From: an uncultured bacterium
GTDB taxonomy: Bacteria; Deinococcota; Deinococci; Deinococcales; Marinithermaceae
DNA length: 64,000 nucleotides
Reading direction: 5' to 3'
Assembly: GCA_964642655.1 (NCBI GenBank)
Contig: CAZXOY010000002.1
Coordinates: 41,866-105,865, forward strand
The notes beneath the pieces were generated by a model. The model saw nothing but the letters and a program-made list of their open reading frames with translations, searched no databases and was not told the DNA's origin. The translations under genes and the position numbers were made by a program. Below are positions 37,470 through 53,616 of the stretch, piece after piece; positions within the stretch are counted from its first letter, which is position 1; the number at the start of each line of letters is the position of its first letter.

Positions 37470-38432
37470 ATGCGAACCCAAGTGCAGATCGAAGAAGTGG
37501 CGAGGGGGATCTGGCGCCTGAGCTTGCCGATCCCCTACCCGCTCAAGCACGTCCATGCCTATCTCCTCCGGGGTGACGGCGCGGCCCTGGTCGATACCGG
37601 TCTCAAGGCGGGGGCCCTCGAGGCCGCGCTGGCCGAGCTCGGCCTCGGTTTCGGCGATCTCGACGCGGTTTTCATCACCCACCACCACCCCGACCACTAC
37701 GCCCTCGCCGGACGCCTGGAGGCCCAGGGGGCCCAGGTTTTGATGCTCGAGGAAGAGATCCGCCGCGGCCACGCCTTCTGGACCGACTTCGAGACCTGGC
37801 GCGACGCCGGACACCGGGCCTTCCTGGACCACGGGGTCCCCGAGGCCTACATCGAGGGATTTGCCCGCGAGATGGACGAAACCCGGAAGCGGGTCTTTCC
37901 GCCCGAGTCACCGAGGGGCCTCCAGGACGGCCAGACGGTGGAGCTCGCCGGCATGCGCTTTCGGGTCCTCGCGACTCCCGGCCACGCCGAGGGTCAGGCC
38001 GCCCTCTATCGCGAAGACGGGGTGCTCATTGCTGGGGACGCGATCCTCGACCGGGTGAGCCCCATCATCGCCCGCTGGGCCTACAGCAACCCCGATCCCC
38101 TGGCCGACTTCCTGGGTACCCTCGAGCGGCTGGCCGAGCTGGAGGTGGGTCTCACCTTGAGCGGCCACTTCAACCCCCCCGACCTCAAAGCCCGAACCAA
38201 AGCCCTCCAACGCCACCACGCCGAGCGCCTGGAGGCCACCCTCGAGGTCCTCAAAACGGGGCCCAAGACGGCCTGGGAAGCCTCGCTCGCGCTCTTTCCG
38301 GGCGAGCTGCCACCCACCCAGCGCCGCTTCGCCTGGGCCGAAACCCTCGCCCACCTGGAGCACCTTCGATACCAGGGTGAACTCGCCCGCATCCCCGGCC
38401 GCCCCGTGCGCTACGCGCTGGCCACCGGGTGA
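37470..38432 (+). CDS. MBL-fold metallo-hydrolase
   Basis: HHHPDH metal-binding motif and downstream His/Asp ligands. Confidence 0.8.
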   Translation: MRTQVQIEEVARGIWRLSLPIPYPLKHVHAYLLRGDGAALVDTGLKAGALEAALAELGLGFGDLDAVFITHHHPDHYALAGRLEAQGAQVLMLEEEIRRGHAFWTDFETWRDAGHRAFLDHGVPEAYIEGFAREMDETRKRVFPPESPRGLQDGQTVELAGMRFRVLATPGHAEGQAALYREDGVLIAGDAILDRVSPIIARWAYSNPDPLADFLGTLERLAELEVGLTLSGHFNPPDLKARTKALQRHHAERLEATLEVLKTGPKTAWEASLALFPGELPPTQRRFAWAETLAHLEHLRYQGELARIPGRPVRYALATG

Positions 38433-38439
38433 GGCCCAT

Positions 38440-39684
38440 TCAGACCAAAATGATCCGCAGGTCGTTGAGGTTATTGGCGGTGGGGCCGGTCTGAACCAGA
38501 TCCCCGAGGGCGGAAAAGAAGCCGTGGGCGTCGTTTCTGGCCAGGTAGGCCGCGGGATCGAGGCCGAGCGCCAGGGCCCGGTGGAACGAATCCGGGGTGA
38601 GTAGGGCCCCGGCAACGTCGGTATTCCCGTCGATACCATCCGAATCCACCGCCAGGGCCCACACGCCCTCGGGGCCCAGGTAGAAAAGGAGCCAGAGCAA
38701 AAACTCCTGGTTGCGCCCGCCCCGGCCTTCGCCACTCACCGTGACGCTGGCCTCGCCACCGCTCAAAAGGGCAAAGGGCGGCCGGCGGGGCAAGCCGCGC
38801 TTGCGCGCGCTCAAAATGATCTCGGCGTGGACTCGGGCAAGGTCCCTGGCCTCGCCGGTCAGGCGGTCGGAGAGGATCAGGGTCGGAAAGCCCTTTTCCT
38901 CGAGATAGTCGGCGGCCGATTGCAAAAGATCGGCGTTCGAAGCGAGGATTTCGGTTTCCACTCCGGAAAACACGGGCGCGCCCGGTTTTGGCGTTTCCGG
39001 GAGTTCACCCCGGGCTCCGGCCTCGAGGTGAGCCCGGGCCTTCTTGGAAGTGACGCCGTAGCGGTCGAGGACCCCCAGCGCGTCCTCGAAGGTGGTGGGG
39101 TCGGGCACCGCGGGCCCCGAGGCGATGGTGCTGGGATCATCGCCGGGAACGTCGGAAAGCAGCAAGGCCCGGACCCGGGCCGGATAGGCGGCCTCCGCCA
39201 AGCGCCCGCCCTTGATGCGCGAGAGGTGCTTGCGCACCGCGTTGATCTCGTGGATCGAGGCGCCGCTCTTCAAGAGTTCCCTGGTCAGGCCCTGCTTTTC
39301 CTCAAGCGTCACGCCCCAGGGCGCGGCCCAAAGGGCACTCCCCCCTCCCGAAACGAGCAGAAGCAGGAAATCGCCGGAACCCAGGCTTTGGGCCAGGGCG
39401 AGCGCTTCGTCCGCCGCCGCCTCCGAATTGCGATCCGGAACCGGGTGGCCCGCCTCAACGAGACGCATTCGCGAAAGCTTGCCCGCATGTCCATAACGGG
39501 TCACCCCAAAGCCGATCGCGTCCGGCCAGACCTCCTCCACCGCCTTCAGCATGGGCCAGGCCGCTTTACCAACCGCCAGCACGTGGGCGCGGGGCGGCGG
39601 TGGGCCGAGGGCTTCGCCGACCAGACGGTAGGGATCGGTGGCGAACAGCGCCCGATCGAGGGCTGCCCGGAGCAACTCGCGCAC
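38440..39684 (-). CDS. Glycerate 2-kinase (MOFRL family)
   Basis: MOFRL N- and C-terminal domains; 414 aa; GTG start. Confidence 0.85.
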   Translation of the reverse strand: MRELLRAALDRALFATDPYRLVGEALGPPPPRAHVLAVGKAAWPMLKAVEEVWPDAIGFGVTRYGHAGKLSRMRLVEAGHPVPDRNSEAAADEALALAQSLGSGDFLLLLVSGGGSALWAAPWGVTLEEKQGLTRELLKSGASIHEINAVRKHLSRIKGGRLAEAAYPARVRALLLSDVPGDDPSTIASGPAVPDPTTFEDALGVLDRYGVTSKKARAHLEAGARGELPETPKPGAPVFSGVETEILASNADLLQSAADYLEEKGFPTLILSDRLTGEARDLARVHAEIILSARKRGLPRRPPFALLSGGEASVTVSGEGRGGRNQEFLLWLLFYLGPEGVWALAVDSDGIDGNTDVAGALLTPDSFHRALALGLDPAAYLARNDAHGFFSALGDLVQTGPTANNLNDLRIILV

Positions 39685-39778: not shown

Positions 39779-39806
39779 CCCCCGCCGCGTTTTGCCGCGG
39801 CGGGGG
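39779..39806 (-). terminator. Hairpin terminator at the end of the liv-containing operon
   Basis: CCCCCGCCGCG-ttttgc-CGCGGCGGGGG, within 3 nt of the livF stop. Confidence 0.55.
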
Positions 39807-39808: not shown

Positions 39809-40510
39809 TCAGAAGGCCAGGTAGGCCCGCTGCACCGCGGGATTCTCGCGGAGGCTCGAGGCGGAGCCCTCGAGGACCACTCGGCCGTGCTCCAAAACGT
39901 ATCCGCGATCGGCGACCTCGAGGGAAAGGGCCACGTTCTGTTCCACCAGGAGCACCCCCACGCCCCGGCTTCGCACCGATTCGAAAACCGAGAGCACTTC
40001 CTGGGCCAGGTTCGGGGCCAGGCCGAGGCTGGGCTCGTCGACCAAAAGGACCTTCGGCTGCCCCATCAGCGCCCGGGCAATGGCCAGCATCTGCTGCTCA
40101 CCGCCGGAGAGGGTGCCGGCGAGCTGGTTTTTGCGTTCCGCAAGCCTGGGAAACAGTTCGAAGACCCAGGCAAGGGAGGCTTCAAAGGCGTCCATGGCCA
40201 AGAAGGCGGCCCCGAGCCTGAGGTTTTCAATCACCGTCATCAGCGGGAAAAGCTGTCGCCCCTCGGGCACGTGTCCGAGGCCCATCCGTGCCCGCGAAGC
40301 GGCGCTCGTGGGCCCAAGGTCGACCCCGTTCAGCCGCACCTGCCCCCGCCAGGGCCGGCAAAGCCCCGAGATCACCCTCAGCGTGGTGGTCTTGCCCGCC
40401 CCGTTGGCCCCGAGCAGCGCCACCAGCTCCCCGGGGCCAACGGTGAGCGAAACCCCCCACAGCACCTGCGCTTTACCGTAGCCGGCCTCGACGTCCAAAA
40501 GCTCAAGCAC
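39809..40510 (-). CDS. livF: Branched-chain/hydrophobic amino-acid-type ABC transporter ATP-binding protein (LivF-like)
   Basis: GANGAGKTT Walker A, LSGGEQQMLAIARAL signature; GTG start at 40508-40510 with GGAGGA SD preferred over the extended ORF. Confidence 0.85.
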   Translation of the reverse strand: MLELLDVEAGYGKAQVLWGVSLTVGPGELVALLGANGAGKTTTLRVISGLCRPWRGQVRLNGVDLGPTSAASRARMGLGHVPEGRQLFPLMTVIENLRLGAAFLAMDAFEASLAWVFELFPRLAERKNQLAGTLSGGEQQMLAIARALMGQPKVLLVDEPSLGLAPNLAQEVLSVFESVRSRGVGVLLVEQNVALSLEVADRGYVLEHGRVVLEGSASSLRENPAVQRAYLAF

Positions 40511-41234
40511 CGCGATCCTCCCCCCGACGCCCGAGGTAGGCCTCGCGCACCCTGGGCTGCCGCGCCACGGCCTCATACGTGCCCTCGGCGATGACCTCCC
40601 CGTGATCCATCACCACCACCCGATCGGCGAGCGCCCGCACCACCGGCATCACGTGCTCGATGAAGAGAATGCTCACGCCTTCTTCGCGCAGGGAACGGAT
40701 GAACGCCACCGTCTCCTTGGCCTCCACGGGCCTGAGCCCGGCCATGACCTCGTCGAGCAGGAGCAGCTTGGGCCGGGTGGCCAGGGCCCGCGCGACCTCG
40801 AGGCGCTTGTCCTCGACCAGCGTCAGGTTCGAGGCCACCTGATCAGCATGAGCGGCAAGGCCCGTACGCACCAGCACCTCATCGACCCACCGCCGGGCCT
40901 CGGCCACCCCGAGGCCCGGCGAACCGAACAGCGCCCCCACCATGAGGTTCTCACGCACCGTCATCTCGGGAAAGGGCTCGACGATCTGAAAAGCCCGCCC
41001 AAGCCCCAGATGCGTTCGCCGTTCGGGTGGCATACGGGTGATATCGCGGCCCTCGAGGAGAATCCGGCCCTTGCTGGGGCGAATGAGCCCCGAGATCAAA
41101 TTGAGCAAGGTGCTCTTCCCCGCCCCGTTCGGGCCGATCACCGCCAGAATCTCGCCCGCGTTGACGGTCAAACTCACCTCGCTCACCGCGAGGAGACCGC
41201 CATAGGCCTTGGACACGCCTTCAACCCTGAGCAC
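40503..41234 (-). CDS. livG: ABC transporter ATP-binding protein (LivG-like)
   Basis: [12 protein letters not shown] Walker A, ABC signature and Walker [12 protein letters not shown]. Confidence 0.85.
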
Positions 41235-42129
41235 GGTGCTTCCAAAGCCTCACCAGGCCACCGGGGAGAAACAGCACGGTCACCACCAGCAACACCCCGT
41301 AAACGATGAGGTACCCCTGACCGATCTCCAGCCTGAGGAAATTCTCTAAACCCGTCAGCAAAAGCCCGCCCAGGAGCGGACCGGTGGTGGTATAGAGGCC
41401 ACCGAAGATCGGAATCACCAGCGCCTCCACCGCGCGAACCAAGCCAAAGGCATCGTACGAAGTAAGGAAGAGCGCCTTCTGGGCGTAAACCCCGCCGGCG
41501 AGCCCTGCGAGGAAGCTCGAGACCACGAGCGCCCCCAGCTTGACCGACGTCGCGGGAACGCCGAGCACCCGGGCCACCGCCTCCCGCTGCCGAACCGCGG
41601 CCGCGGCGAAGCGCCAGCGACTTCGCTCCAAAAGCAGACTCGCCCCCACCGCCACCGCGAGAACGGCCAGCGCGAGATAGTAAACCGCCATCGGAGCCCC
41701 GGGGAAAGCGGCTGGCAGGGGGTACCCCCACGGCCCGCCGAGAAACTCCACCGGCGCCTTGAGCACCAGGGTGCGCATCACCTCGCTGTAGGCCAGCGAA
41801 GCGATGGCGAAGTAAATGCCGAGGAGCCGGAGCGTGAGCGCCCCCAGCAAGGCCCCGTTGATGGCCGCGGCGACGGCGCCGAGAAAAAGCGCGACAAAAG
41901 GCCCTGTCCCGTGGTTCATGGCGTAGGCGGTGGCGTAGGCCCCAACGCCAAAAAAGGCCCCGTGAGCCAGGGAAAGCTGCCCGGTCCGGGCCATGAGGTC
42001 CCACGAGAGCGCGAGGGCGGTGATCACAAAGGCAAAGGGGGCGGCATCCAAAACGAAAGCGCGCCACACCCCAAGCGGCACCGCGGGCAGCAAAAGGGCC
42101 AGGAGGAAGACGAAGCCGACGAGCCTCAC
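41221..42129 (-). CDS. livM: ABC transporter permease (LivM-like); start uncertain
   Basis: Polytopic permease; start placed at GTG 42127-42129, which overlaps the livH stop as GTGA; the longer ORF would overlap livH extensively. Confidence 0.75.
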   Translation of the reverse strand: MRLVGFVFLLALLLPAVPLGVWRAFVLDAAPFAFVITALALSWDLMARTGQLSLAHGAFFGVGAYATAYAMNHGTGPFVALFLGAVAAAINGALLGALTLRLLGIYFAIASLAYSEVMRTLVLKAPVEFLGGPWGYPLPAAFPGAPMAVYYLALAVLAVAVGASLLLERSRWRFAAAAVRQREAVARVLGVPATSVKLGALVVSSFLAGLAGGVYAQKALFLTSYDAFGLVRAVEALVIPIFGGLYTTTGPLLGGLLLTGLENFLRLEIGQGYLIVYGVLLVVTVLFLPGGLVRLWKHRAQG

Positions 42130-42983
42130 ACCACCCTCCAGCTCCGAAGCACCAGCGCGGCGAAGATCACGAAGAAGAAGACCGCCTCGACCCACCCACC
42201 ACCACCAGGGACGTAGGTGGAAACGAACGCCTCGGCCAAAGCCAGTACCAGCGAGGCCCAAAGCACCCCGGCGATGTTCCCAAGCCCGGCCATCACCACG
42301 ATGGCAAAGGCCTTGAGAGTGTAGATGAACCCAACGGTGGGACTGGCGTAGAGCATCACCGAAAGCATCACCCCGGCCAGGCCGGCGAGGGCCGCGGAAA
42401 GGCCAAAAGCGAAGGCATAGACGTTTTCGATCTCGATTCCCAAAAGCCCCGGAGCCATCCGGTTTTGCGCCACCGCCCTCACGGCCAGCCCCCAGCGACT
42501 CCTCTTTAAAAAGGCGTGCAGCAGGAATAGGAGCAGATAGGAGAGGACGAACGAGATCAATGGCACCCAGCCGAAGGCCAAAAAACCCAGCGAGAGCGAG
42601 GCGCCCTGGTAGGGGGGGTTGACCACGCGGGTATCCCCGCCAAAGAGAAGCAAGGCCAGATTTTGCAAGACGATGGACAGACCAAACGTCAGCAGCATCT
42701 GATTGAGCTCCGGGGCCAGCAACACCGGGCGGATCAGCCAGCGATACACGAGGGCGCCGGCCAAAAAGAGCGCCAGGGCAGCGATGCCCAGCGAGAAGAC
42801 CGGGTCCACCCCGCGCGCCACGAAGAGCAAATAGCTGAGGAACGCCCCGATCATCAAGAACTCCCCGTGGGCGAAGTTCACAATGCCCACGACCCCGAGA
42901 GCGATGGCGAGGCCGCTCGCCACCAGGGCATACACCCCGGAGGCGAGCAGGCCGTTCATGAGCGTTTGCAAAAAGAGTTCCAC
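42126..42983 (-). CDS. livH: ABC transporter permease (LivH-like)
   Basis: MELFLQTLMNGLLASGVYALVASGLAI... typical LivH. Confidence 0.85.
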   Translation of the reverse strand: MELFLQTLMNGLLASGVYALVASGLAIALGVVGIVNFAHGEFLMIGAFLSYLLFVARGVDPVFSLGIAALALFLAGALVYRWLIRPVLLAPELNQMLLTFGLSIVLQNLALLLFGGDTRVVNPPYQGASLSLGFLAFGWVPLISFVLSYLLLFLLHAFLKRSRWGLAVRAVAQNRMAPGLLGIEIENVYAFAFGLSAALAGLAGVMLSVMLYASPTVGFIYTLKAFAIVVMAGLGNIAGVLWASLVLALAEAFVSTYVPGGGGWVEAVFFFVIFAALVLRSWRVV

Positions 42984-43007
42984 GTCGCTCCCCGCGTCAA
43001 ACCGGCT

Positions 43008-44180
43008 TTAGGGGGCCATGGGGTAGCGCAACTCGACGACCGCCTTTCCCGGCGGGAAGACCGGGTAGCGGGCGCCCGAGAGGTACTGGAACTGGAACCA
43101 GACCTCGCTGCCAAACCCCTGGTATTTGGTCTTTCCCGTACCCGAGGGCCCGAAACTCAAGGGACCGAACGGGGTATCCATCTCCACCTGGGCCAGGGCC
43201 GCCGCGATCGCAGGCTTCCCCTCACCCTGCGCCCGCGCCAGCGCCCGCGCGAGCGACTTCACGATCACGTACCCCAGCGGCGCCATGTACTCCTCGGTGA
43301 CCTCGCCGTACTTCTGCCGGTAGGCCCGGACGAAGGCTTTCGACTCCACGTTGGCCACGGTGGGCAACCAGGCGGTCATCCCGGCCACGCCGCTGGAGAG
43401 CGGGCTCTGCTCGAACCCCTTGGGCCAGGAGGGCGGGGCGCCGTAGATGAGCTTGGGGTTCAATCCGACCTCGCGCGCCTGGGCGGCGATGGGCAAAGCA
43501 TCCACGTCGTAGCCGATCCAGTAGAGAATATCGGGGCCAAAGGCCTTAAAGCGGGTGAGTATGGAGGTAAACTGACCCGAGCCCGCCTTATACGGCGCCG
43601 TTTGCACCGAGTAACCCATATCTTGGAGCTGCTTTCGGTAGACCTTGATGCCGGCAGACCCAAATGGCCCGTCCTCGTAAAGCACCGCCACCTTCTGGGC
43701 TCCCTTTTCCTTCCGGAGGTACTGGAAAAACCCAAGCGCCGCCTGAACGTTGTTGTAATCCCACGGGTGGTAGTGGAAGAAATAGGGATAGCCCTGGTAA
43801 GCATTCTCGACCACAGAGCTGGCCGCCCCGATCACCAAAAAGATCGGCTGATAGCGCTTGATGGGGCCTGCCAGGGCGTAAGTCACACCGGAGGACAGAC
43901 CACCGATCACGATGTCGACTTTGTCCACGGTAAGCAGCTTGGTGAGCGCCGGGACCGCTTTGGCGGGATCGGTGCCCGAATCGGCCACCTTAAGCTCGAT
44001 CTTGAACGCGCCCTTGGCGTTGATCTCGTCGACCGCGAGTTGGATTCCGCTCAAAGCGGCCTGACCGGAGACCGAAGCCACACCCGAAAGCGGCAGTAAT
44101 ACCCCCACCTTCACCGTCTTGGCCGCAAAGGCCATACCCAAGAACGCCGCCAGTATGAAAAACACCCCAACCTTTTTCAT
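43008..44180 (-). CDS. Periplasmic substrate-binding protein of the Liv-type ABC system (type I PBP fold)
   Basis: Signal peptide MKKVGVFFILAAFLGMAFA; Leu/Ile/Val-binding-protein-family body; 390 aa. Confidence 0.85.
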   Translation of the reverse strand: MKKVGVFFILAAFLGMAFAAKTVKVGVLLPLSGVASVSGQAALSGIQLAVDEINAKGAFKIELKVADSGTDPAKAVPALTKLLTVDKVDIVIGGLSSGVTYALAGPIKRYQPIFLVIGAASSVVENAYQGYPYFFHYHPWDYNNVQAALGFFQYLRKEKGAQKVAVLYEDGPFGSAGIKVYRKQLQDMGYSVQTAPYKAGSGQFTSILTRFKAFGPDILYWIGYDVDALPIAAQAREVGLNPKLIYGAPPSWPKGFEQSPLSSGVAGMTAWLPTVANVESKAFVRAYRQKYGEVTEEYMAPLGYVIVKSLARALARAQGEGKPAIAAALAQVEMDTPFGPLSFGPSGTGKTKYQGFGSEVWFQFQYLSGARYPVFPPGKAVVELRYPMAP

Positions 44181-44608
44181 TCCTCTCCTCTCCTTTCCTC
44201 GATCGGCTGGAAAAGCACCTTAGCCTCCCCTTCCAGCACCCGTTCCCCGCGCTGGTTGACGCAGATCGTCTCCAAGGTGAGCACCTGACCGCCATCGTCA
44301 CGATCCCGCACCTGGCGCACATAAGCCGTGGCGGTGACGGTGTCGCCAAGGTAGACGGGCTTTAAGAACTTCAGCGACTGCGCCAGGTACACCGCCCCCG
44401 TCCCCGGAAGCCGGGTACCGATCACCGTCGAGATAAGCCCCGCGGTCAAAATGCCGTGGGCGATGCGGGCGCCAAAACGGGTCTTGCGGGCGTACTCGGC
44501 ATCGAGGTGTAAGGGGTTGGTGTCCCCGCTCACGCCGGCGAAAAGCACCACGTCGGCTTCGGAGATCGTCTTCGTGAACGAAGCCCGGTCCCCAACCTGA
44601 AACCTCAT
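44177..44608 (-). CDS. MaoC-like (R)-specific enoyl-CoA hydratase / hot-dog fold dehydratase
   Basis: FAGVSGDTNPLHLD...IAHGIL hot-dog motif; start at ATG 44606-44608, forming ATGA with the upstream stop. Confidence 0.8.
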   Translation of the reverse strand: MRFQVGDRASFTKTISEADVVLFAGVSGDTNPLHLDAEYARKTRFGARIAHGILTAGLISTVIGTRLPGTGAVYLAQSLKFLKPVYLGDTVTATAYVRQVRDRDDGGQVLTLETICVNQRGERVLEGEAKVLFQPIEERRGEE

Positions 44609-45354
44609 CGCCCCACCTCCGAAAACGCCATCCGGAGCATCTCCCCAAGCCGCGCCGGGGCCTCGATCATCGGGCTGTGACCGACGCCCTCGAGGACCCA
44701 AAGCCGCCCCTTTGGAAACGCCTGGGCGGTCGCCTCGGCCATCTCGGGGGTGATGAGCGCGTCCTGATCCCCGCGTATGACAAAGACAGGTTTGGCGTAG
44801 GTCGCGGTTTGGCCCTCCACGCCCCAGGAGGCAAGCGCCTTGGCATTGCCGGCAAACCCCGCCGGGTGCATCCCCTGGGCCAGGTCAACCAGGCGCTCGA
44901 AGTACGGGGGCTTCCGGCTCGGCATCGTCGCCGCCAGCGCCTCGGCCAGCGCCTGCCGATCGTCGCGGTAGCCCTCGAGGATGGGGTAATAGGCCTCGGG
45001 GGTGGGATATCCCCCGGGCGGCGCGGAGTCCAACAAAACGAGGGCTGGGAAGCGATCGGGCTCGCGCAGGGCAGCTTCCATCACCACCGCGCCGCCGAGC
45101 GAGTGGCCCACCAGTATGGGGGTTCCGAGGCCGAGCCGGTCGATGAAGCCAAGGAGCACCTGGGCATAGATCGGAATGCTGGGCACGAAGCCTTGCGGGG
45201 CCTCACTCTCGCCAAAACCCGGAAGATCCGGGGCGATCATCCGATACCCTGGCCACTTGAGGCCCAGGATCTCCTGCCACCATGCCTTGCCGGCAAAGTT
45301 GCCGTGCACCAGGACCACCGGTTGCCCATTGCCTGTTTCCAGATAGCTAAGCAT
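44605..45354 (-). CDS. Alpha/beta-hydrolase
   Basis: GHSLGG nucleophile elbow, HG oxyanion motif (VVLVHGNFAG); start at ATG 45352-45354. Confidence 0.75.
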   Translation of the reverse strand: MLSYLETGNGQPVVLVHGNFAGKAWWQEILGLKWPGYRMIAPDLPGFGESEAPQGFVPSIPIYAQVLLGFIDRLGLGTPILVGHSLGGAVVMEAALREPDRFPALVLLDSAPPGGYPTPEAYYPILEGYRDDRQALAEALAATMPSRKPPYFERLVDLAQGMHPAGFAGNAKALASWGVEGQTATYAKPVFVIRGDQDALITPEMAEATAQAFPKGRLWVLEGVGHSPMIEAPARLGEMLRMAFSEVGR

Positions 45355-46153
45355 GATCCGCCTCCAAAAATTCCCGAACCGCACCGAAAAACCGCTGCGG
45401 GTCCTCGAGGGGCGCGAGGTGACCGAGGCCCTCGAGGACCAAAAAGCGCGCACCGCGAATGGCGCTGGCCGTCTCCCGTCCGTAACTCGGGGGAAAGAGC
45501 AGGTCGGCCTCCCCCGAGAGCACCAGGGTCGGGACCTCAACCTTCGCGAGCGCCGGGGTGAGGTCGCCAAGGGTGAGGAAGCCGTCGAGAAGCCTTTCCT
45601 GCGCAGCCTCCGTCGGGGCCATGGCCCGTGCCTCGGCCAGCGCTTCTTCGCTCAACAGCCCGGGGTTTTGGGCCAAGAACCGACGCCCGTAAAGCCAGGG
45701 CAGCGCCACCTTGAGCCTGAGCTCGGTCCCGCCCACGGTCAAAGCCGCTCGCCAGCTCTCAACCTTGGCCCGAACGAGCGGGTCGAGCCGCGAAAGCGTC
45801 GCCGCCAGGATGAGCCTTTGGAGCCCGGACGGGCGCCCACTGGCAAACACTTGCGCCACCACGCCACCGTTGGAAAGACCGAGTACGCTGTAGGTTTCGA
45901 TGCCCAGGGCTTCAAGCAAAGCTCGAAGGTCGGCGGCGTGCACCTCCGGGGTGTAGATGCCGGGCGGGGCCAGAGAGTTCCCTTGGCCGCGCATGTCATA
46001 GCGGAGCACGCGATACCCTTCCAAAAAGCCGAGCAGGGGCGTCCAATGGGTCGTTTTCTGGAAGATGCCGTTCAAAAGCACCAGCCAGGGCCCGTGCCCG
46101 TCGGTTTCGAAATAGAGGCGGATGCCACGAACCTCAACCGTCGGCACGTTCAC
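45347..46153 (-). CDS. Alpha/beta-hydrolase (second, non-identical paralogue)
   Basis: GLSNGG nucleophile elbow; 268 aa. Confidence 0.75.
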   Translation of the reverse strand: MNVPTVEVRGIRLYFETDGHGPWLVLLNGIFQKTTHWTPLLGFLEGYRVLRYDMRGQGNSLAPPGIYTPEVHAADLRALLEALGIETYSVLGLSNGGVVAQVFASGRPSGLQRLILAATLSRLDPLVRAKVESWRAALTVGGTELRLKVALPWLYGRRFLAQNPGLLSEEALAEARAMAPTEAAQERLLDGFLTLGDLTPALAKVEVPTLVLSGEADLLFPPSYGRETASAIRGARFLVLEGLGHLAPLEDPQRFFGAVREFLEADHA

Positions 46154-47624
46154 CCCCGTAGCGCGCCGCGATCTCGCGCTTTAGGATCTTCCCGGCGCCC
46201 GATTTGGGCAGCGACGGCAGAAAAACCCACCGCTTCGGCACCTTGTAAGCGGCGAGACGCGTCTTTAAGAAATCCTTCAACGCATCTTCGTTGGCCTTGG
46301 CCCCGGGCTTGAGGACGACCGCGGCGAGGCCCACCTCGCCCCACTTGGCATCGGGTACGCCCACCACCGCGGCCTCGAGCACGTCCGGGTGATCGTAGAG
46401 GACCCGCTCGATTTCAGCGGGGTAAACATTCTCCCCGCCAGAAACGAACATCTCCTTTTTCCGTCCCACGATGTAGTGCCGACCCGCCTCGTCGCAATAC
46501 GCCAGATCGCCGGTGCGAAGCCAGCGCCGACCCTCAGCCTCTACAAAGACGGCGGCGGTTTCATCCGGCCGCTCGAAATACCCCTGCATCACCACCGGCC
46601 CCGAAAGCCAAAGCTCGCCCACCTCCAAGGGGCCAAGCCGCTCGCCGCTCGAACCGGCGATCCGGGTCCAAAGGTGGAGCACCGGCCGGCCCACCGCCTC
46701 GGGGTAGGCCTCGGCTTCGTCGAGGTCAAAGGCAAAGCAGTTCACCCCGGCTTCGGTGAGTCCGTAGCCCTGCTTGAACCGGACACCGACGCGACGAAAG
46801 GCCTCGCGTACCGGGGCTGGACAGGGCGCCCCTCCGGAAATCGCAAAGCGAACGCTGGAAAAGTCGGTCCGGGCAAAATCCGGATGTTGGGCCAGCATCT
46901 GAAACATGGTGGGCACCATAAAGAGCACCGTGGGCCGGAACGATGCGACCCAGGCCAGATACTCGCCGGGATCAAAACGCTCCTCGATCAAGACCTCGGC
47001 CCCGAGGTACAAAAGGGGCGTCGTAAGGGCGTGGAGGGCGGCATGGAACATCGGCGTGGCCACGATGTAGCGGTCGCTCGGGGCAAGCCCCCAGGAAAAG
47101 ACGGTGTTCTTGGCATTGATCAAGAGCTGCCGATACGGGATCATCGCCGCTTTTGGCCTGCCGGTGGTGCCGCCGGTAAAGAGCAGCATGACGAGGTCTT
47201 CGGGGCCAAGCCTCGGCGAGGCAAACGCCACCGTTTTCCCTTCGGTGAGGACCGAAAGTGGCAGCGCACGGGGCCCCAAATCCTTGATCCGATCCCCAAA
47301 CTCATCGGCATAAAAGAGCCACTTGGGACGCACGTAGGCCACCAGATCCGCGATCTCGGGCGGCGCCAGCCGCCAGTTGAAAGGAACGAGAACGTGGCCG
47401 AGGCGCGGGGCCGAAAAAAGGAGGTCAAGGTAGGCCAGGTGATTGGGCGCCAAAAGCCCCACCCGGTCCCCCGGTTCCACCCCCAGTGCCGCCAGGCGAC
47501 CGGCGGTTTTTTTCGCTCGCGCCTCCAGGTCGCGGTAGGTGTACCACCGCCCCCGGAAGTGCACCGCACGGCGTTCCGGGTGGTAAGCCGCGAGGCGGGC
47601 GATGAGATCGAGGTTGAGTTCCAT
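46134..47624 (-). CDS. AMP-dependent acyl-CoA synthetase/ligase (medium-chain type)
   Basis: LFTGGTTGRPKAAMIPY (A3), GYGLTEAG (A5), YRTGDLAY...GRKKEMFVSGGENVYPAEIE (A7/A8), GKILKREI (A10). Confidence 0.85.
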   Translation of the reverse strand: MELNLDLIARLAAYHPERRAVHFRGRWYTYRDLEARAKKTAGRLAALGVEPGDRVGLLAPNHLAYLDLLFSAPRLGHVLVPFNWRLAPPEIADLVAYVRPKWLFYADEFGDRIKDLGPRALPLSVLTEGKTVAFASPRLGPEDLVMLLFTGGTTGRPKAAMIPYRQLLINAKNTVFSWGLAPSDRYIVATPMFHAALHALTTPLLYLGAEVLIEERFDPGEYLAWVASFRPTVLFMVPTMFQMLAQHPDFARTDFSSVRFAISGGAPCPAPVREAFRRVGVRFKQGYGLTEAGVNCFAFDLDEAEAYPEAVGRPVLHLWTRIAGSSGERLGPLEVGELWLSGPVVMQGYFERPDETAAVFVEAEGRRWLRTGDLAYCDEAGRHYIVGRKKEMFVSGGENVYPAEIERVLYDHPDVLEAAVVGVPDAKWGEVGLAAVVLKPGAKANEDALKDFLKTRLAAYKVPKRWVFLPSLPKSGAGKILKREIAARYGGERADG

Positions 47625-48620
47625 CTACGCCTCCCTCCGGAAAACCGCAGCCCCCCAGTGGTAGCCGACCCCGGCCACCGCGCAGGCCGCGAGCCCACCT
47701 GGGGGAATCCGACCGTCCTCGAGGGCCAGCTTGAAAGACAAAATGGGGTCCAGCTGGCCCAAATGACCGTAGCGCTCGAGGTAGATGCTCTTATCTTCCC
47801 CCAGACCGAGCCCTTCGAGCACCGCCGCGTGGGCCGAGCGTTTCATGTGCAAAAGGGCGAGATAGCTGAGCTCTCGGGCCTCGCACCCCGCCTCGCGCAA
47901 TGAAGCCTCAATGACCTGCAAAAAGTTGGGCAGGCTCACCTGGGCCAACCGCGCTTTCAGCCATTCCGGATCGGTGACCTTGAGGCGGTACTGGTCGAGG
48001 TTCTCCCGCGTGAGGGGGTTCCGCGTGCCGCCCACCGGCACCAGAACCGCCTGCGCCAGCGACGAATCGGTAAGCAAACGGGCAGAAAGGAGGCGGAGTC
48101 CTGGGCCGTCCCGGCCAACCACCACCGCACCCCCTGCGGCCCCCAGGTCATACATGAAACGCACGTGGGGATCGCTGTAGTCGATCAGATCCCCGTTGCG
48201 GTAACCGCCGGCGATAAGGACCTTCCCCGCCCGGCCCGTGACCAAGAGCCCCTCGGCCAGGAGCAAGGCGGTGACGAAGCTCGCGCATTTTTGATTCACG
48301 TCGAAAGCAAATGCGTGCTCGGCCCCGATTTCCTTCGCGATATAAGCGGCGCTCACCCACACCGGGTAGTCCTTGTGCTCTTCGGTGATGGAGATGACGA
48401 CGTCAACCGCCTGCGGACGAACACCGGCATCGGACAGCGCTTCTTCGGCGGCCCAAATGGCCATCGCCGCGGGGTGATCGTCGGGTCCGGGCACTGGCTT
48501 TTCCAAAATCCCCAGCTTTTCCCGGACCACCCACTCCGGAAGGCCGCTTTTGCGAGCGATGTCCGCCGCGTCCATCCGTGACTCCGGTAAGTAAACCCCA
48601 AGCCCCTCGATCAAAACCAT
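47625..48620 (-). CDS. KASIII (FabH)-like thiolase-fold condensing enzyme, first gene of the operon
   Basis: FabH-like N-terminus (VLIEGLGVYLPESRMDAADIA), Cys in AFDVNQKCASF aligning with FabH C112, His in LLHMKR, C-terminal GVGYHWGAAVF; the position of the FabH Asn (HGNTSAAS) reads YGHLGQLD. Confidence 0.8.
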   Translation of the reverse strand: MVLIEGLGVYLPESRMDAADIARKSGLPEWVVREKLGILEKPVPGPDDHPAAMAIWAAEEALSDAGVRPQAVDVVISITEEHKDYPVWVSAAYIAKEIGAEHAFAFDVNQKCASFVTALLLAEGLLVTGRAGKVLIAGGYRNGDLIDYSDPHVRFMYDLGAAGGAVVVGRDGPGLRLLSARLLTDSSLAQAVLVPVGGTRNPLTRENLDQYRLKVTDPEWLKARLAQVSLPNFLQVIEASLREAGCEARELSYLALLHMKRSAHAAVLEGLGLGEDKSIYLERYGHLGQLDPILSFKLALEDGRIPPGGLAACAVAGVGYHWGAAVFRREA

Positions 48621-48664
48621 CCGATTGATTCCCCTTCGCTTTGGCCTAACCCTAGCAAACCCCT

Positions 48665-48686
48665 GTTACAAACCCGTTACACACCC
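48665..48686. promoter_or_regulatory. Tandem direct repeats GTTACAAACCC / GTTACACACCC with exact 11-bp register (SARP-type binding-site architecture)
   Basis: Repeats at 48665-48675 and 48676-48686 in the 102-bp gap between the divergent KASIII-like operon and the SARP-module regulator. Confidence 0.4.
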
Positions 48687-48722
48687 GGGGAAAAGCCCGC
48701 CTGCTAAACTGCGGGAAAGCCG

Positions 48723-51356
48723 ATGCGCTATTTCATTCCCGCGACCCGACTTTTACCCCCGCGGATCCCCCACGAGGTCCGTAGGCCCAGGGTGCGTAAT
48801 CTCCTTTTTTCTCGCTGGCAGGAAAGCCCGGCCGTGATCCTGGCCGCTCCAGCCGGCTACGGTAAGTCGGCGCTCCTCGCACCCCTGGCCGAGGTCTGGG
48901 TCACCCTCGGGGAAGAGGCTCGCGACCCCGCAGTGTTCGTCTGGCACCTGCTCGCCGCCTACCGGGACCGGATCCCGGGCAAAACCGTTGAGGCCAGGCT
49001 CATGGGCGGAGACTGGCCGGGGGCCGCGCGCGCCCTGGCCGAAGCCCTCACCACGCTGCCTCCCCACACCCTGGTCCTCGACGAGGCGCACAAGGCCCCG
49101 GCCCGCGAAGGGCTATCGATCATCAAGGCCCTCCTGAACACCCCCGGGCTCCGGCTGGGGCTCGCGGGACGGCGGGCGGCGCCGTGGGAAGCGCTGGCCA
49201 GCGTCATCGGGCCCGAGGCCCTGGCGTTCGACCTCGAGGAGGCGCTCGCCCTGGCTCGGGCGCTGGCGCCGAGCATGGCGGCGTTCGACGTCGAGCGGGC
49301 CTGGCGGCTGGTGTCGGGATGGCCGCTGGGGCTTCGGGTGCTGCTGCGCTGCGCCGCCCGAGGCATGCTGCCGGAACGGGCCGTCTTCGAACCCCCGGAA
49401 CCCGAGAGCATCAGCGCCTACCTCCTGGCCGGCCTCGAACCCGAGATGGCCACGCTGGCCGCCCGTGCCGCGGCCTTCACCGAAGTCGGGCCCGAAGAAG
49501 CCGAGCGACTGGGCTTCGAATTCGAAGCGCTGGAAACCCTGGCCGAAGACCTCCTCCTCGAGCGGGTGGGGCAGCGCCTACGCTTTCACCCCCTGGTTCG
49601 TTCAGCCTTGCTCCGCACGCTCCCGCCCGAAGAAGCACGTTCTTTGGTCATCCGGGCCGCGAAACACAAGGGCGGCATCGAAGCCGCGGTGCACCTGATC
49701 GAAGCTGGCAGGTATCACGAGGCCGCCGAACGCCTCAAGGCCGAAGGCACGCGCTGGTTGGAGCAAGGACTCAACCACAGCGTGCTGTACCTGACCGACC
49801 GCCTCACCGGTCACGCCGACCTCACCCTTCTCCGCGCCGAAGCCTTGCGGCAAGCCGGGCGCTACGCCGATGCTGAAGTTTTGTTTCTCGAGGCCGCACA
49901 GCAGGGCCAGGCCGAAGCGCACTTCGGTCTGGCCCGGCTCTACCTGGACACCGTCGAACCCGCCAAGGCCTGGCCACATCTCCGGGCCGCCCGCGACCTG
50001 TTCCCCTGGGAAAACGTCAGACCGCTCTGGGCGGAAAACGCGCTCAACGCCGGGCGGATCGGTGAAGCCTTAAAACTCGGCGCCCAAGGGCCACGGGCGC
50101 TTTTGCGCAGCGGCCGGGTTGAGCTGGCGCTTGCGGCGGTACGAGAAATGGACGAGACACCGCCCCCCCGACCCTCGAAAAACCACCGGGAAGGACGCCT
50201 TTTGCTGGCCCTGCTCGAGGCGATCGCCGGCGATGCCAAAGCCGGGCTCACGGCAGCCGAGCACGCCCGGGCCCGGGGCGAGGAACTCGGTAGCCCCTTC
50301 GTGGTGGCCTTGGCCGAGGCCCGGAGGGGGCACGCGCTTTTGGCCATGTCGCGCTGGGACGATGCCGGGGCCGCCTACCGCCAGGCCCTCGCCCTTTCCG
50401 AGGGAGGACCGGCCCGGCTCACCGTCGAAGCCCTCGCCGGGCTTGGCAGCCTCGGCGACGACCGGGCCCTCGAGGAAGCCCTCCGTTTGGCGGAGGCGAG
50501 CGGCGATGCCTGGGTCCGAGCGTTCATCTCAACAATGGCGGCCTACGCCCGGCTGCGCCAGGGCAAAGGCTACCCCCTCGCCTTTCCCCCGAGCGAAGAT
50601 CCTTTCCTCGACGCACTGGCCCGGGCGTACCCTTGGCAGCCCGGGGACGTCGGTCTCCTCGAGCGCCACCCCTTTCTCCTGAACGCCACCCTGTTTGCGC
50701 CGCCCATCGAACGCAGCCGCCACGCGCTCTGGCAAGCGGGAAAGCTCGAGGTCGACCATCATCCGGGGGTGTGCGTCGAGATCCAGGCCCTCGGGCCTTT
50801 CCGCGTCCGGGTGAACGGCCAGCCGCTTCGCTTCAAACGGGCAAAGGCCCGCCTGCTCCTCGCGCTCATGGTGGCTGGGGTTGAAGGGAAGACGGCGCTG
50901 ATGGAGGCCCTCGAGGTCTCATCGGGAGAATTTCGGGTCCTGTGGTCGGAGCTCTTGCGCCTCCTCGAGCCCGGACGTCCACCCAGGAGCCGGGGTTACT
51001 TTCTGGCTCCCTACCGACTCGTCTCCCGCCCCGAGCTCAGGATCGACCTTTGGCAAAGCGACGTCTCGCCCGAAACCCAGGCCGAGAGCGACCGGGAACC
51101 CTTTGCCGACCTCGATCATCCGAGACTCGACGAGGCCCGCATCGCCTTCAAGGAAAAGCTGAGGCAACGCCTCATCGATCGAGGCACGGTCCGGTCTCTG
51201 CTGCTCGCCGTAAAGCTCGATCCTCTCGACGAAGCGCCTCTTGAGGCCCTGGAACACCTGGGAGACTCGCGGGCCTATCGGGAAGCACGTGAACGCCACG
51301 AGCGTGCGCTCCGCTCGCTGGGCCTGGAACGCGCCGATCTCGGCGGGCTCGCTTGA
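48723..51356 (+). CDS. Large STAND-type transcriptional regulator: MalT-like NTPase N-terminus + TPR-like middle + C-terminal SARP module (OmpR-type wHTH + BTAD)
   Basis: N-terminus is MalT-like (RPRVRNLL...AVILAAPAGYGKSALLAPL Walker A); C-terminus matches the SARP pattern (ALGPFRVRVNGQPLRFKRAKARLLLALM...GYFLAPYRLV), followed by a BTAD-like helical domain; 877 aa. Confidence 0.8.
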   Translation: MRYFIPATRLLPPRIPHEVRRPRVRNLLFSRWQESPAVILAAPAGYGKSALLAPLAEVWVTLGEEARDPAVFVWHLLAAYRDRIPGKTVEARLMGGDWPGAARALAEALTTLPPHTLVLDEAHKAPAREGLSIIKALLNTPGLRLGLAGRRAAPWEALASVIGPEALAFDLEEALALARALAPSMAAFDVERAWRLVSGWPLGLRVLLRCAARGMLPERAVFEPPEPESISAYLLAGLEPEMATLAARAAAFTEVGPEEAERLGFEFEALETLAEDLLLERVGQRLRFHPLVRSALLRTLPPEEARSLVIRAAKHKGGIEAAVHLIEAGRYHEAAERLKAEGTRWLEQGLNHSVLYLTDRLTGHADLTLLRAEALRQAGRYADAEVLFLEAAQQGQAEAHFGLARLYLDTVEPAKAWPHLRAARDLFPWENVRPLWAENALNAGRIGEALKLGAQGPRALLRSGRVELALAAVREMDETPPPRPSKNHREGRLLLALLEAIAGDAKAGLTAAEHARARGEELGSPFVVALAEARRGHALLAMSRWDDAGAAYRQALALSEGGPARLTVEALAGLGSLGDDRALEEALRLAEASGDAWVRAFISTMAAYARLRQGKGYPLAFPPSEDPFLDALARAYPWQPGDVGLLERHPFLLNATLFAPPIERSRHALWQAGKLEVDHHPGVCVEIQALGPFRVRVNGQPLRFKRAKARLLLALMVAGVEGKTALMEALEVSSGEFRVLWSELLRLLEPGRPPRSRGYFLAPYRLVSRPELRIDLWQSDVSPETQAESDREPFADLDHPRLDEARIAFKEKLRQRLIDRGTVRSLLLAVKLDPLDEAPLEALEHLGDSRAYREARERHERALRSLGLERADLGGLA

Positions 51357-52082: not shown

Positions 52083-53612
<1,530 letters not shown>

Positions 53613-53616
<4 letters not shown>

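Follow-up and report, generated by a model that had tools for sequence, protein, structure and literature searches.

A ten-gene operon with a KASIII-fold protein of the PRK06840 family and a Liv-type importer in a Marinithermaceae bacterium, and its relatives in Bacteria and Archaea

The 64,000-nucleotide stretch analysed here (positions 41,866 to 105,865 of contig CAZXOY010000002.1, assembly GCA_964642655.1, from an uncultured bacterium of the Marinithermaceae; hereafter the window) carries an operon in which a KASIII-fold protein (the KAS-like protein) is encoded together with an AMP-forming acyl-CoA ligase, two α/β-hydrolases (ABH1 and ABH2), a MaoC-type hydratase and a Liv-type ABC importer, opposite a large divergent regulator. 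The question raised by this combination is which compound is taken up and what a protein with the fold of a fatty acid-synthesizing enzyme does to it. The locus is a real ten-gene, translationally coupled operon, and its gene order, which is kept in dozens of genomes, is far from chance. All of its parts come from known superfamilies, and the logic of import, CoA activation and a thiolase-fold step, which a preliminary description of this DNA had proposed and which is upheld here, is familiar. The unusual part is a KASIII-fold enzyme with a non-FabH active site in an apparently catabolic, ACP-independent module of both prokaryotic domains, and the locus is as such a clearly bounded unknown that is open to experiment, and not a surprising new system.

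The KASIII-fold protein and its active site

The KAS-like protein scores 453.8 bits against the NCBIfam model NF005308 (PRK06840; cutoff: 315), as compared with 555 bits for its counterpart in the Bacillus cereus group, and by profile score belongs to this named, curated equivalog ('3-oxoacyl-ACP synthase'), which is uncharacterised. The same protein falls below the cutoffs of both FabH models (TIGR00747: 102.7 vs 292.1 bits; PRK09352: 116 vs 249 bits), reaches 68.6 bits against the archaeal HMG-CoA synthase model PRK04262 (cutoff: 244), and this over its N-terminal half only, and fails the Thiolase_N model (22 bits; cutoff: 26.4). The closest solved structures in a sequence search of the PDB are FabH enzymes (~90 bits; e-value: 1e-24), while PqsD (3h76; 61.5 bits), DpsC, CerJ, BioZ and OleA (e-values: 5e-7 to 2e-6) are all weaker matches. 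Furthermore, an AlphaFold (AF2) model of the protein (pLDDT: 89.9) has the FabH fold, and its best Foldseek matches in the PDB (e-value: 3e-31; TM: 0.83-0.89) are FabH-like proteins sharing 20-27% identity. No closer characterised relative than these generic FabH-like matches was obtained in the PDB sequence and fold searches.

When the protein is aligned to FabH with HMMER, Cys112 and His258 fall on the catalytic Cys and His, whereas the position of the triad Asn is occupied by His286, which is invariant across the family; the protein hence lacks a Cys-His-Asn triad. The family signature, drawn from 18 close, 16 diverse and ~110 representative relatives, consists of Cys112 (or Ser), His258, Lys260, Ser262, His286 and Asp291, together with Lys83 and Trp88. 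The family is compact, with 97 clusters (50% identity) at e-values of 1e-30 or below among 1.84 billion representatives. Judged by these profiles and residues, the KAS-like protein is not a FabH, OleA, PqsD, HMG-CoA synthase or thiolase. The preliminary description had proposed to place the protein against FabH, OleA and PqsD, to none of which it belongs, and its statement that the enzyme set is not FAS II agrees with the failure of the FabH models and of the Cys-His-Asn triad.

Two types of active site can be distinguished within the family. In one subclade, to which the whole B. cereus group belongs (locus L085, 9989-10984; proteins P0121-P0135, P0231, P0239, P0248 and P0250) the nucleophile is Ser and Glu81 is also lost, with His258, Lys260, His286 and Asp291 remaining invariant, and the function of these proteins may have diverged. 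The Cys-type members, including those of the window and of haloarchaea, retain Glu81. This co-variation of Glu81 with Cys112 suggests a functional Glu-Cys pair, which has the ~31-residue spacing of Glu79 and Cys111 in HMG-CoA synthase and is presumably equivalent to that pair. The Glu/Cys pair of HMG-CoA synthase and OleA serves non-decarboxylative carbanion chemistry, and by analogy the pair in the KAS-like protein hints at chemistry of this kind.

Database entries for the identical KAS-like protein begin at the second ATG (48575), giving a product of 316 amino acids (P0001); the start at 48620 is better supported, because homologs align from residues 1-4 of the 331-amino acid form. BioZ-type pimelate synthesis was also considered for this protein and rejected, as there are no bio genes and BioZ is a weaker match than FabH.

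A module of import and acyl-CoA enzymes in Bacteria and Archaea

The distribution of the operon was determined by tblastn with the window proteins against 80 loci recovered by the KAS-like protein, and the counts given refer to loci with enough flanking sequence; genes in high-GC loci were called with a GC3-weighted caller and cross-checked with tblastn and database gene calls. The KAS-like protein shares 94% amino acid identity with that of an uncultured Thermaceae metagenome-assembled genome (L001) and 59-67% with those of Meiothermus, Calidithermus and Thermus. The ligase gene is located directly 3′ of the KAS-like gene in 72 of 75 loci. A Liv-type ABC system is present in 47/60 loci, with LivF orthologs (55-73% identity) in the same position in 48/60 and LivG also syntenic, while at least one α/β-hydrolase is encoded in 44/60, a co-directional short-chain dehydrogenase/reductase (SDR) in 24/60 and MaoC in 25/60, the last within this locus set in Thermaceae only. 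The large divergent regulator occurs in 13 of 70 loci, all of them from Thermaceae, and almost all other lineages have a co-directional TetR gene just upstream in its place (42/70 loci), these lineages being Trueperaceae, Nevskiales, Salinisphaera and other Gammaproteobacteria, Binatia and Verrucomicrobia.

Synteny across Thermus and Meiothermus, which the preliminary description had advised looking for, was found in both genera. Meiothermus ruber DSM 1279 carries an orthologous ten-gene operon (K649_14205; database gene calls) for the KAS-like protein, ligase, hydrolase, MaoC, binding protein, two permeases, two ATPases and an SDR, in which the LivM ortholog is equal in length and has an identical 4-nt overlap. 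Thermus parvatiensis, of the T. thermophilus group (L037; chromosome 1312491-1333426), has the KAS-like gene only (63% identity over residues 4-314). It lacks the ligase, both hydrolases, MaoC, the ABC system and the regulator, although the genes upstream are those of other Thermus species, and the lone gene looks like an operon remnant. Several further Thermus loci (L022-L024 and L026, at ~19.5-20.4 kb) contain a short CaiB/BaiF-type CoA-transferase-like ORF convergent to the 3-hydroxybutyrate dehydrogenase gene that ends the operon. Its best match is a succinyl-CoA:mesaconate CoA-transferase, over the N-terminal part only (89 bits).

The proteobacterial versions differ in their transport and hydrolytic genes. 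The Nevskia operon encodes TetR, the KAS-like protein, the ligase, an outer-membrane channel (Phenol_MetA_deg), a secreted Lipase_2 enzyme, an SDR and an MFS transporter. Other versions harbor what on sequence inspection is a sodium:solute symporter-like (monocarboxylate-type) permease with a small membrane subunit, as well as a second small secreted lipase, and the secreted esterases of proteobacteria bear carbohydrate-associated domains. A Cas4-Cas1 fusion gene and cas2 are located ~7 kb upstream of the module in Nevskia (L081, 1074-3097) and are unrelated to it.

A protein search of plasmid records returned homologs with 35-38% identity on eight Halobaculum plasmids, one Salarchaeum and one Halomicrococcus plasmid, and also in Bacillus and Brevibacillus; a near-identity DNA search of the locus against plasmids gave just two trivial ABC-gene matches. 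In haloarchaea a Liv-type ABC operon ends with the KAS-like gene, and genes for MaoC, α/β-hydrolase and AMP-binding proteins adjoin the latter in Salarchaeum and in two of the three Halobaculum records inspected. The order in Bacillus sp. N5-665 is TetR, ligase, MaoC, KAS-like gene, a gene for an NHL/SGL β-propeller (esterase/lactonase-like) protein and the Liv ABC genes. The Bacillus ligase is the type member of NCBIfam PRK06839 (1015 bits) and the Bacillus KAS-like protein that of PRK06840, and exact-sequence look-up places the pair throughout the B. cereus group under the names 'o-succinylbenzoate-CoA ligase' and '3-oxoacyl-ACP synthase'. The former name is given to the B. cereus-group ligase (L085, 8078-9568) by NF005307 (PRK06839) and is probably wrong, because the operon context (TetR, MaoC, KAS-like protein, Liv ABC) is unrelated to menaquinone synthesis.

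Because the gene set recurs in Thermaceae, proteobacteria, the B. cereus group and haloarchaeal plasmids, the importer, ligase, PhaJ-like hydratase, esterase-like hydrolase and KAS-like enzyme are, on comparative grounds, regarded as an old, mobile functional unit of both prokaryotic domains. The preliminary description had presented the locus as uncharacterised, which stands insofar as its function is unstudied and a functionally characterised orthologous cluster could be found neither in the searchable literature nor in the PDB or source annotations. The unit is, however, not obscure, the KAS-like family being a curated NCBIfam equivalog and the module occurring throughout the B. cereus group. 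To our knowledge, haloarchaea lack FAS II and ACP. The presence of the module on their plasmids therefore points to CoA esters rather than ACP esters as substrates, and the KAS-like enzyme probably works on the former. No ACP, malonyl-CoA-forming or polyhydroxyalkanoate (PHA) synthase genes were found in ~90 contexts examined.

Among the partner enzymes of the window, the ligase groups with the FadD/Fcs-type CoA ligases, with 8weu and 8wev (fatty-acyl-CoA synthase, feruloyl-CoA synthetase; 356 bits; ~45% identity) as its best PDB matches. Both hydrolases lack a signal peptide. ABH1, with the nucleophile motif GLSNG, is best matched in NCBIfam by the PcaD enol-lactonase (122 bits; cutoff: 256), and ABH2, with the motif GHSLG, by the intracellular short-chain PHA depolymerase NF050089 (109 bits; cutoff: 300), against which ABH1 scores 71.5 bits, such that neither qualifies as a polyhydroxybutyrate (PHB) depolymerase; PDB matches of ABH2 are the esterase 4uhc and the PHB depolymerase 8ynv. 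The MaoC protein is assigned to the PhaJ type, as its best PDB matches are 5cpg (PhaJ1; 112 bits) and 1iq6 (A. caviae PhaJ) and its motif SGDTNPLH aligns with the catalytic D-x-N-P-x-H of both. Leu65 and Val130 of A. caviae PhaJ are bulky residues that limit chain length, as known from mutagenesis, and the aligned positions in the window protein hold Ile and Val.

The importer comprises all five LIV-I parts, namely a Peripla_BP_6 protein, two BPD_transp_2 permeases and two ATPases, and the PDB relatives of its binding protein reach ~79 bits at most. In LivJ and LivK, Glu226 and Thr102 bind the α-amino group and carboxylate of the ligand. The position of LivJ Glu226 is occupied by Lys in the window protein and by Val, Thr, Ile, Ser or Ala in its orthologs, is never acidic, and falls in a gap for two haloarchaeal binding proteins, while that of Thr102 is Ala in all module binding proteins; the alignment rests on ~20-25% identity, which gives these positions moderate weight. 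Since the residue that holds the α-amino group is lacking, the imported ligand is likely an acid rather than an amino acid.

The accessory genes narrow the substrate further. In Thermus and Meiothermus, the SDR at the end of the operon scores 335 and 318 bits against TIGR01963, the model for 3-hydroxybutyrate dehydrogenase, and so exceeds its cutoff of 307. Proteobacteria have an SDR, in the operon or next to it, that exceeds the cutoff of TIGR01829 (302), the model for acetoacetyl-CoA reductase, with 338 and 334 bits. Two different SDR families have thus been recruited to the module in different phyla, both of which interconvert 3-hydroxybutyr(yl) and acetoacet(yl) compounds. An esterase- or lactonase-like partner is found in every lineage, from the unrelated folds of α/β-hydrolases, NHL/SGL β-propellers and Lipase_2 proteins, and the only PDB relatives of the secreted proteobacterial Lipase_2 enzyme, both weak (e-value: ~1e-6), are Bacillus subtilis LipA and the PHB depolymerase PhaZ7. 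Within 10 kb on either side of the module in ~90 loci there is no classical thiolase or AtoDA, except for a thiolase upstream in L021, and a search for AtoDA, AtoE and AtoB homologs in all loci fetched gave no CoA-transferase, no short-chain transporter and one nearby thiolase. The KAS-like protein is therefore the sole thiolase-superfamily member of the module. Taken together, the accessory genes appear to converge on short-chain (R)-3-hydroxyacyl- and 3-oxoacyl-CoA chemistry. The preliminary description had envisaged the uptake of a hydrophobic acid, of which the acid is supported by the binding protein, but 'hydrophobic' is doubtful, as the PhaJ-like pocket and the recruited dehydrogenases point to C4-C6 3-hydroxy and 3-oxo acids.

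A tentative pathway and the explanations that compete with it

We suggest that the operon may serve the inducible scavenging of a small non-amino carboxylic acid, the likeliest substrates being (R)-3-hydroxybutyrate, related C4-C6 3-hydroxy- or 3-oxoalkanoates, or their oligomers or esters, released during PHB or PHA breakdown. The Liv-type ABC system would import the acid or a short ester, ABH1 and ABH2 would act as cytoplasmic serine hydrolases that split ester bonds, and the ligase would form the CoA thioester. The PhaJ-type hydratase could then interconvert (R)-3-hydroxyacyl-CoA and enoyl-CoA, feeding the (S)-specific β-oxidation set encoded 15 kb away at 23.9-31.6 kb. This canonical cluster encodes an acyl-CoA dehydrogenase, a thiolase, a 3-hydroxyacyl-CoA dehydrogenase and a FadD-type ligase, and its separate location agrees with the earlier statement that the gene set of the operon is distinct from canonical β-oxidation. 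The KASIII-fold enzyme would act on CoA esters at the 3-oxoacyl/3-hydroxyacyl-CoA node, most likely by non-decarboxylative, thiolase-like C-C cleavage, in which Cys112 would be used for cleavage, Glu81 would serve as acid/base and His258 and His286 would form the oxyanion hole. Expression would be activated by the 877-amino acid STAND regulator through TGTAAC-N5-TGTAAC repeats in the -35 region. We put forward this scheme as a whole, with PHB-derived 3-hydroxyalkanoates scavenged and 3-oxoacyl-CoA cleaved by the KAS-like enzyme, as a tentative possibility; its catabolic direction, substrate class and KAS-like reaction are inferred, while the operon structure, domain identities, cross-domain synteny, operator motif and residue signatures are observed.

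The canonical route for PHB mobilisation and 3-hydroxybutyrate use proceeds through a PhaZ depolymerase or oligomer hydrolase, BdhA, acetoacetyl-CoA synthetase and thiolysis by a β-ketothiolase (PMC6201568). The module resembles it in its serine esterases, its acid-CoA ligase, the 3-hydroxybutyrate dehydrogenase (Thermus and Meiothermus) or acetoacetyl-CoA reductase (proteobacteria) and a thiolase-superfamily enzyme. It differs in that a single operon unites the genes with a PhaJ hydratase and a Liv-type importer of their own, in that the ligase is a 496-amino acid FadD/Fcs-type enzyme instead of an ACS-type acetoacetyl-CoA synthetase, and in that a KASIII-fold Cys-His-His enzyme takes the place of the Cys-His-Cys thiolase.

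Several observations weigh against the proposed scavenging of 3-hydroxyalkanoates. The window operon has no dehydrogenase and no BdhA-type SDR is encoded in the 64-kb window, while the Trueperaceae versions lack both MaoC and SDR. The closest solved relative of the ligase is a feruloyl-CoA synthetase (~45% identity), which speaks for an aromatic or medium-chain acid. Both hydrolases fall far short of the PHA depolymerase cutoff, their matches being typical of generic α/β-hydrolases, and the Lipase_2 match to PhaZ7 is no better than that to LipA. We know of no KASIII-fold enzyme that performs thiolysis, and ordinary thiolases are present in module-bearing genomes, that of the window being encoded at 25618-26814, which makes the retention of a special enzyme hard to explain. 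PhaB- and PhaJ-type enzymes are classically anabolic, and the direction of the pathway could therefore be reversed. Finally, the subclade to which the B. cereus group belongs has a Ser nucleophile, which is more suited to acyl transfer than to Claisen chemistry.

Such a reversed, biosynthetic or elongating use would follow the logic of PqsA/PqsD/PqsE or NphT7, the imported acid being activated by the ligase and condensed decarboxylatively with malonyl-CoA to 3-oxoacyl-CoA, which the PhaB-type SDR and PhaJ could turn into (R)-3-hydroxyacyl-CoA or PHA monomers, or which a hydrolase could release as a β-keto acid or methyl ketone. The adjacency of the ligase and KAS-like genes in 72/75 loci is the classic layout of a priming ligase and condensing enzyme, the fold and best structural matches are those of FabH, PqsD, BioZ and ZhuH, a Cys-His-His site is used by the decarboxylating KAS I/II enzymes, the PhaB- and PhaJ-type partners are normally anabolic, and the hydrolases could serve as thioesterases, like PqsE. 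We nevertheless regard this use as doubtful, as high-affinity import, secreted esterases, the outer-membrane channel and TetR or activator control look catabolic, 3-hydroxybutyrate dehydrogenase, which acts on the free acid, does not fit, and conserved Glu81 suggests non-decarboxylative chemistry; the lack of ACP, malonyl-CoA-forming and PHA synthase genes in the ~90 contexts and the occurrence in ACP-less haloarchaea speak against it as well. The Pqs system itself has the same succession of activities as the module (a ligase, then a KASIII-fold enzyme, then a hydrolase) and likewise places the ligase and KAS genes side by side. However, PqsD has a Cys-His-Asn triad and is matched at 61.5 bits only, PqsE has a metallo-β-lactamase fold, the Pqs pathway is biosynthetic and has no importer, and the module has neither pqs nor other anthranilate-related genes, so that the PqsA/PqsD analogy drawn in the preliminary description is not sustained. 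The parallel with OleA/OleC/OleB drawn there fares no better: head-to-head condensation to β-lactones or olefins is exceedingly improbable. A thiolase-fold enzyme with a conserved Glu upstream of the Cys, an ANL-superfamily AMP-ligase-fold enzyme and an α/β-hydrolase in one cluster do recall OleABCD superficially, but the OleD reductase is absent from the window and the 80 loci, OleA structures match at e-values of 1e-6 to 1e-7 as against 1e-24 for FabH, the triad is not Cys-His-Asn, the ligase is of the FadD/Fcs type, and an importer and short-chain hydratase are unfit for long-chain olefin synthesis. Hardly less remote is a priming shunt of fatty acid synthesis as in FabH and Pseudomonas aeruginosa PA3286, in which imported short or branched acids and malonyl-ACP would seed iso- and anteiso-fatty acids, and which we consider very unlikely. 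Thermaceae and Bacillus do make branched fatty acids, and the Liv-type transporter and the FabH fold, in which the nucleophilic Cys and first His keep their positions, would be in keeping with it. The KAS-like protein, however, stays below both FabH cutoffs at 20-27% identity, has the invariant His286 in place of the triad Asn, carries further invariant residues (Lys260, Asp291 and Lys83) besides Glu81, which varies together with the Cys, and belongs to a family found in archaea without ACP and FAS II and in transport and catabolic operons; moreover, the hydrolases, PhaJ and 3-hydroxybutyrate dehydrogenase have no priming role, and the binding protein is unlike an amino acid binder. The membership tests and the archaeal distribution largely exclude both the priming shunt and the Ole-type condensation.

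Two further explanations leave the catabolic direction in place. In the catabolism of hydroxycinnamates or other 2-enoic or aromatic acids, the Fcs-like ligase would yield an enoyl-CoA that MaoC hydrates and from which the thiolase-fold enzyme removes acetyl-CoA, by thiolysis after oxidation or by a retro-aldol reaction as in ChsH1-ChsH2/Ltp2, with the hydrolases acting as feruloyl esterases or thioesterases. The ~45% identity of the ligase to a solved feruloyl-CoA synthetase, the Phenol_MetA_deg channel and the carbohydrate-associated domains of the secreted proteobacterial esterases are all consistent with this, an already unsaturated acid needs no acyl-CoA dehydrogenase, and Liv-type binders for coumarate and related aromatics exist, such as CouP of Rhodopseudomonas palustris. 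CouP/CouAB-type systems indeed share with the module a Liv-family importer for a non-amino acid, an Fcs-like CoA ligase and a hydratase, but there the hydratase-lyase is of the crotonase type and not a hotdog-fold PhaJ-type enzyme, and the module has in addition a KASIII-fold enzyme and no aromatic downstream genes. The pairing of a MaoC-type hydratase with a thiolase-superfamily enzyme in non-decarboxylative aldol-type C-C chemistry has a precedent in ChsH1-ChsH2/Ltp2, and HMG-CoA synthase offers a second likeness in the Glu ~31 residues upstream of the Cys and the match of its archaeal model to the N-terminal half. From both, the KAS-like protein differs in lying far below the HMG-CoA synthase cutoff (244), in lacking a DUF35 partner, in its C-terminal half and second His, and in its apparently short-chain substrates. 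Hydroxycinnamate use is unlikely in view of the MaoC protein, which is closest to short-chain PhaJ and keeps the bulky pocket residues, and of the Thermaceae SDR, which scores above the cutoff for 3-hydroxybutyrate dehydrogenase. The contexts examined contain no gene for an aldehyde dehydrogenase, a vanillate demethylase or ring cleavage, the binding protein is unrelated to solved aromatic-acid binders at e-values below 1e-10, and ferulate degradation is not typical of hot-spring Thermaceae, the B. cereus group or Halobaculum. Alternatively, with the rest of the module unchanged, the KAS-like protein could be an acyltransferase or ester-thiolysis enzyme resembling CerJ or DpsC that moves acyl groups between CoA and a hydroxyl, for instance in the CoA-dependent splitting of a ligase-activated 3-hydroxybutyrate dimer or lactone-derived ester into two acyl-CoAs. 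This would account for the Ser nucleophile of a whole subclade in which the other active-site residues are invariant and for the esterase- or lactonase-like partners of unrelated folds in every lineage, and KASIII-fold O-acyltransferases are known, CerJ and DpsC being among the PDB matches. It is nonetheless an improbable solution, given that the Cys/Glu81 pair of the main clade, including the window, is more typical of carbanion chemistry, that CerJ and DpsC are more distant matches than FabH, and that the reaction has no precedent.

Other candidates were rejected. The β-valine CoA-dependent lyase pathway also has a ligase and a hydratase-like lyase, but its lyases are of the crotonase type and there is no KAS; in dicarboxylate catabolism of the itaconate/mesaconate type the hydratase would be Ich/Mch-like, whereas the MaoC protein is PhaJ-like (36 bits to the former). 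Acyl-homoserine-lactone turnover and levulinate or lactone pathways have no contextual support.

Extended to the whole family, the scavenging of 3-hydroxyalkanoates would make PRK06840 a new functional class in the thiolase superfamily, KASIII-fold and ACP-independent, with a Cys(Ser)-His-Lys-His-Asp/Glu site, performing CoA-dependent C-C cleavage or ester thiolysis of short 3-oxo- and 3-hydroxyacyl units at the centre of an unrecognised uptake pathway for PHB-derived 3-hydroxyalkanoates in Bacteria and Archaea; we consider this rather unlikely. If the assignment to 3-hydroxyalkanoate scavenging holds, it would provide a function for a gene pair that is present in several other phyla as well as throughout the B. 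cereus group and is annotated as '3-oxoacyl-ACP synthase' and 'o-succinylbenzoate-CoA ligase'. It would also extend the KASIII fold to a catabolic reaction that is independent of ACP, and explain how thermophiles, bacilli and haloarchaea take up soluble compounds derived from PHB, a bioplastic of major natural and industrial importance. The operator and STAND regulator would, furthermore, amount to a defined, inducible promoter system that could be used in Thermus and Meiothermus. Even with a wrong guess at the substrate, its cross-domain conservation marks the module as a well-defined, testable 'known unknown'.

Regulator, operon layout and flanking genes

The preliminary description had labelled the divergent regulator STAND/SARP, which is supported in part. 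The regulator's own matches are weak (AAA_22, e-value: 0.007; TPR_1, e-value: 2e-4; MalT N-terminus, 34 bits with a cutoff of 537), although a Walker A-like APAGYGKS is visible in its sequence, and no winged-helix or BTAD domain was detected by Pfam in the protein or, at relaxed thresholds, in its C-terminal 197 amino acids. Homologs of near-full length are restricted to Thermaceae. The regulator is, however, collinear over residues 21-775 (33% identity) with a Deinococcus protein (P0223) that has an N-terminal AAA_22 domain, TPR repeats and a C-terminal BTAD domain at residues 910-1004; such Deinococcus proteins carry the annotation of BTAD-domain regulators. It resembles large SARP/STAND regulators, such as AfsR-like and BTAD-bearing Deinococcus proteins, in its predicted P-loop NTPase and TPR repeats, its collinearity and a putative direct-repeat target with an 11-bp period, while its putative DNA-binding region is C-terminal instead of N-terminal and too diverged for Pfam, and its family is confined to Thermaceae.

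This putative target, the tandem repeat TGTAAC-N5-TGTAAC, is new here and goes beyond the preliminary description. It is located in the -35 region, 10 nt upstream of a TAGGGT -10-like hexamer (48649-48654), and occurs once in the window as compared with 0 occurrences expected by chance (100 shuffles). The same repeat is found upstream of the KAS-like gene in 13/13 Thermaceae loci examined (L001, L002, L005, L019-L026, L028 and L034), where it precedes a TAnnnT hexamer by 8-10 nt, and is thereby conserved across Thermus, Meiothermus and the window. SARP activators classically recognise direct repeats of this kind, spaced with an 11-bp period and adjoining the -10 element, which makes the STAND/SARP label reasonable. 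The repeat is the probable operator of the regulator and also marks a candidate inducible promoter.

The features of the operon are listed in Table 1. The ten minus-strand genes, each with strong domain matches, the terminator hairpin and the promoter region shared with the regulator lie exactly where the preliminary description had placed them, and the one-operon architecture and gene content are as it had described. Its account of the junctions also holds, all of them being overlaps (ATGA, GTGA or 8-20 nt), abutments or gaps of at most 24 nt.

Table 1. Coordinates of the operon, its terminator and its divergent control region in the window.
Feature	Position	Strand	Description
KAS-like gene	47625-48620	minus	331 aa; ACP_syn_III and ACP_syn_III_C matches
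AMP-forming acyl-CoA ligase	46134-47624	minus	496 aa; AMP-binding, e-value 1e-78
α/β-hydrolase 1 (ABH1)	45347-46153	minus	268 aa; Abhydrolase_1, e-value 4e-20
α/β-hydrolase 2 (ABH2)	44605-45354	minus	249 aa; Abhydrolase_1, e-value 5e-30
MaoC, PhaJ-type (R)-specific enoyl-CoA hydratase	44177-44608	minus	143 aa, hotdog fold; MaoC_dehydratas, e-value 4e-27
Periplasmic substrate-binding protein	43008-44180	minus	390 aa, signal peptide; Peripla_BP_6, e-value 9e-61
LivH-type permease	42126-42983	minus	285 aa; BPD_transp_2, e-value 9e-37
LivM-type permease	41221-42129	minus	302 aa, GTG start at 42129; BPD_transp_2, e-value 4e-28
LivG-type ABC ATPase	40503-41234	minus	243 aa; ABC_tran, e-value 3e-32, and BCA_ABC_TP_C
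LivF-type ABC ATPase	39809-40510	minus	233 aa, GTG start at 40510; ABC_tran, e-value 1e-31
Terminator hairpin	39779-39806	minus	directly 3′ of the LivF stop; 11-bp G+C stem, 6-nt loop, no T-tract
Divergent promoter region, KAS-like gene/regulator	48621-48722	.	102 bp
Probable regulator operator	48665-48681	minus	TGTAAC-GGGTT-TGTAAC; tandem direct repeat, 11-bp period
Divergent regulator ORF	48723-51356	plus	877 aa; N-terminal P-loop/STAND-like NTPase, TPR region, C-terminal SARP-winged-helix-like region

On reading of the sequence, the KAS-like and ligase genes abut (0 nt, TAG followed by ATG) and the ligase and ABH1 genes overlap by 14-20 nt, followed by an 8-nt overlap between ABH1 and ABH2 and ATGA overlaps at both the ABH2/MaoC and the MaoC/binding protein junctions. 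A gap of 24 nt separates the binding protein gene from livH, the start of livM overlaps the livH stop (GTGA), livM and livG overlap by 14 nt, or are 4 nt apart with an alternative livG start, and livG and livF overlap by 8 nt. The hairpin, CCCCCGCCGCG-GCAAAA-CGCGGCGGGGG, lies in a 51-nt stretch with a folding energy of -35.4 kcal/mol (z = -4.2; 0 of 200 shuffles equally stable) and was missed by a consensus terminator scan because it lacks a T-tract.

The operon is flanked by housekeeping genes. Beyond the LivF end, at 34861-39684, genes for a glycerate 2-kinase, an MBL-fold hydrolase and an EPSP synthase are located, while a dcw cluster (mraZ, mraW, ftsI, Mur ligase genes, a mraY-like gene and ftsW) lies beyond the regulator at 52083-60163. 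The latter region includes a 249-amino acid ORF (56285-57034) that has no Pfam match. An AT skew of 0.32-0.48 extends across both permease genes (41000-43000) and probably reflects the T-rich codon usage of minus-strand membrane-protein genes rather than a replication or mobile-element signal.

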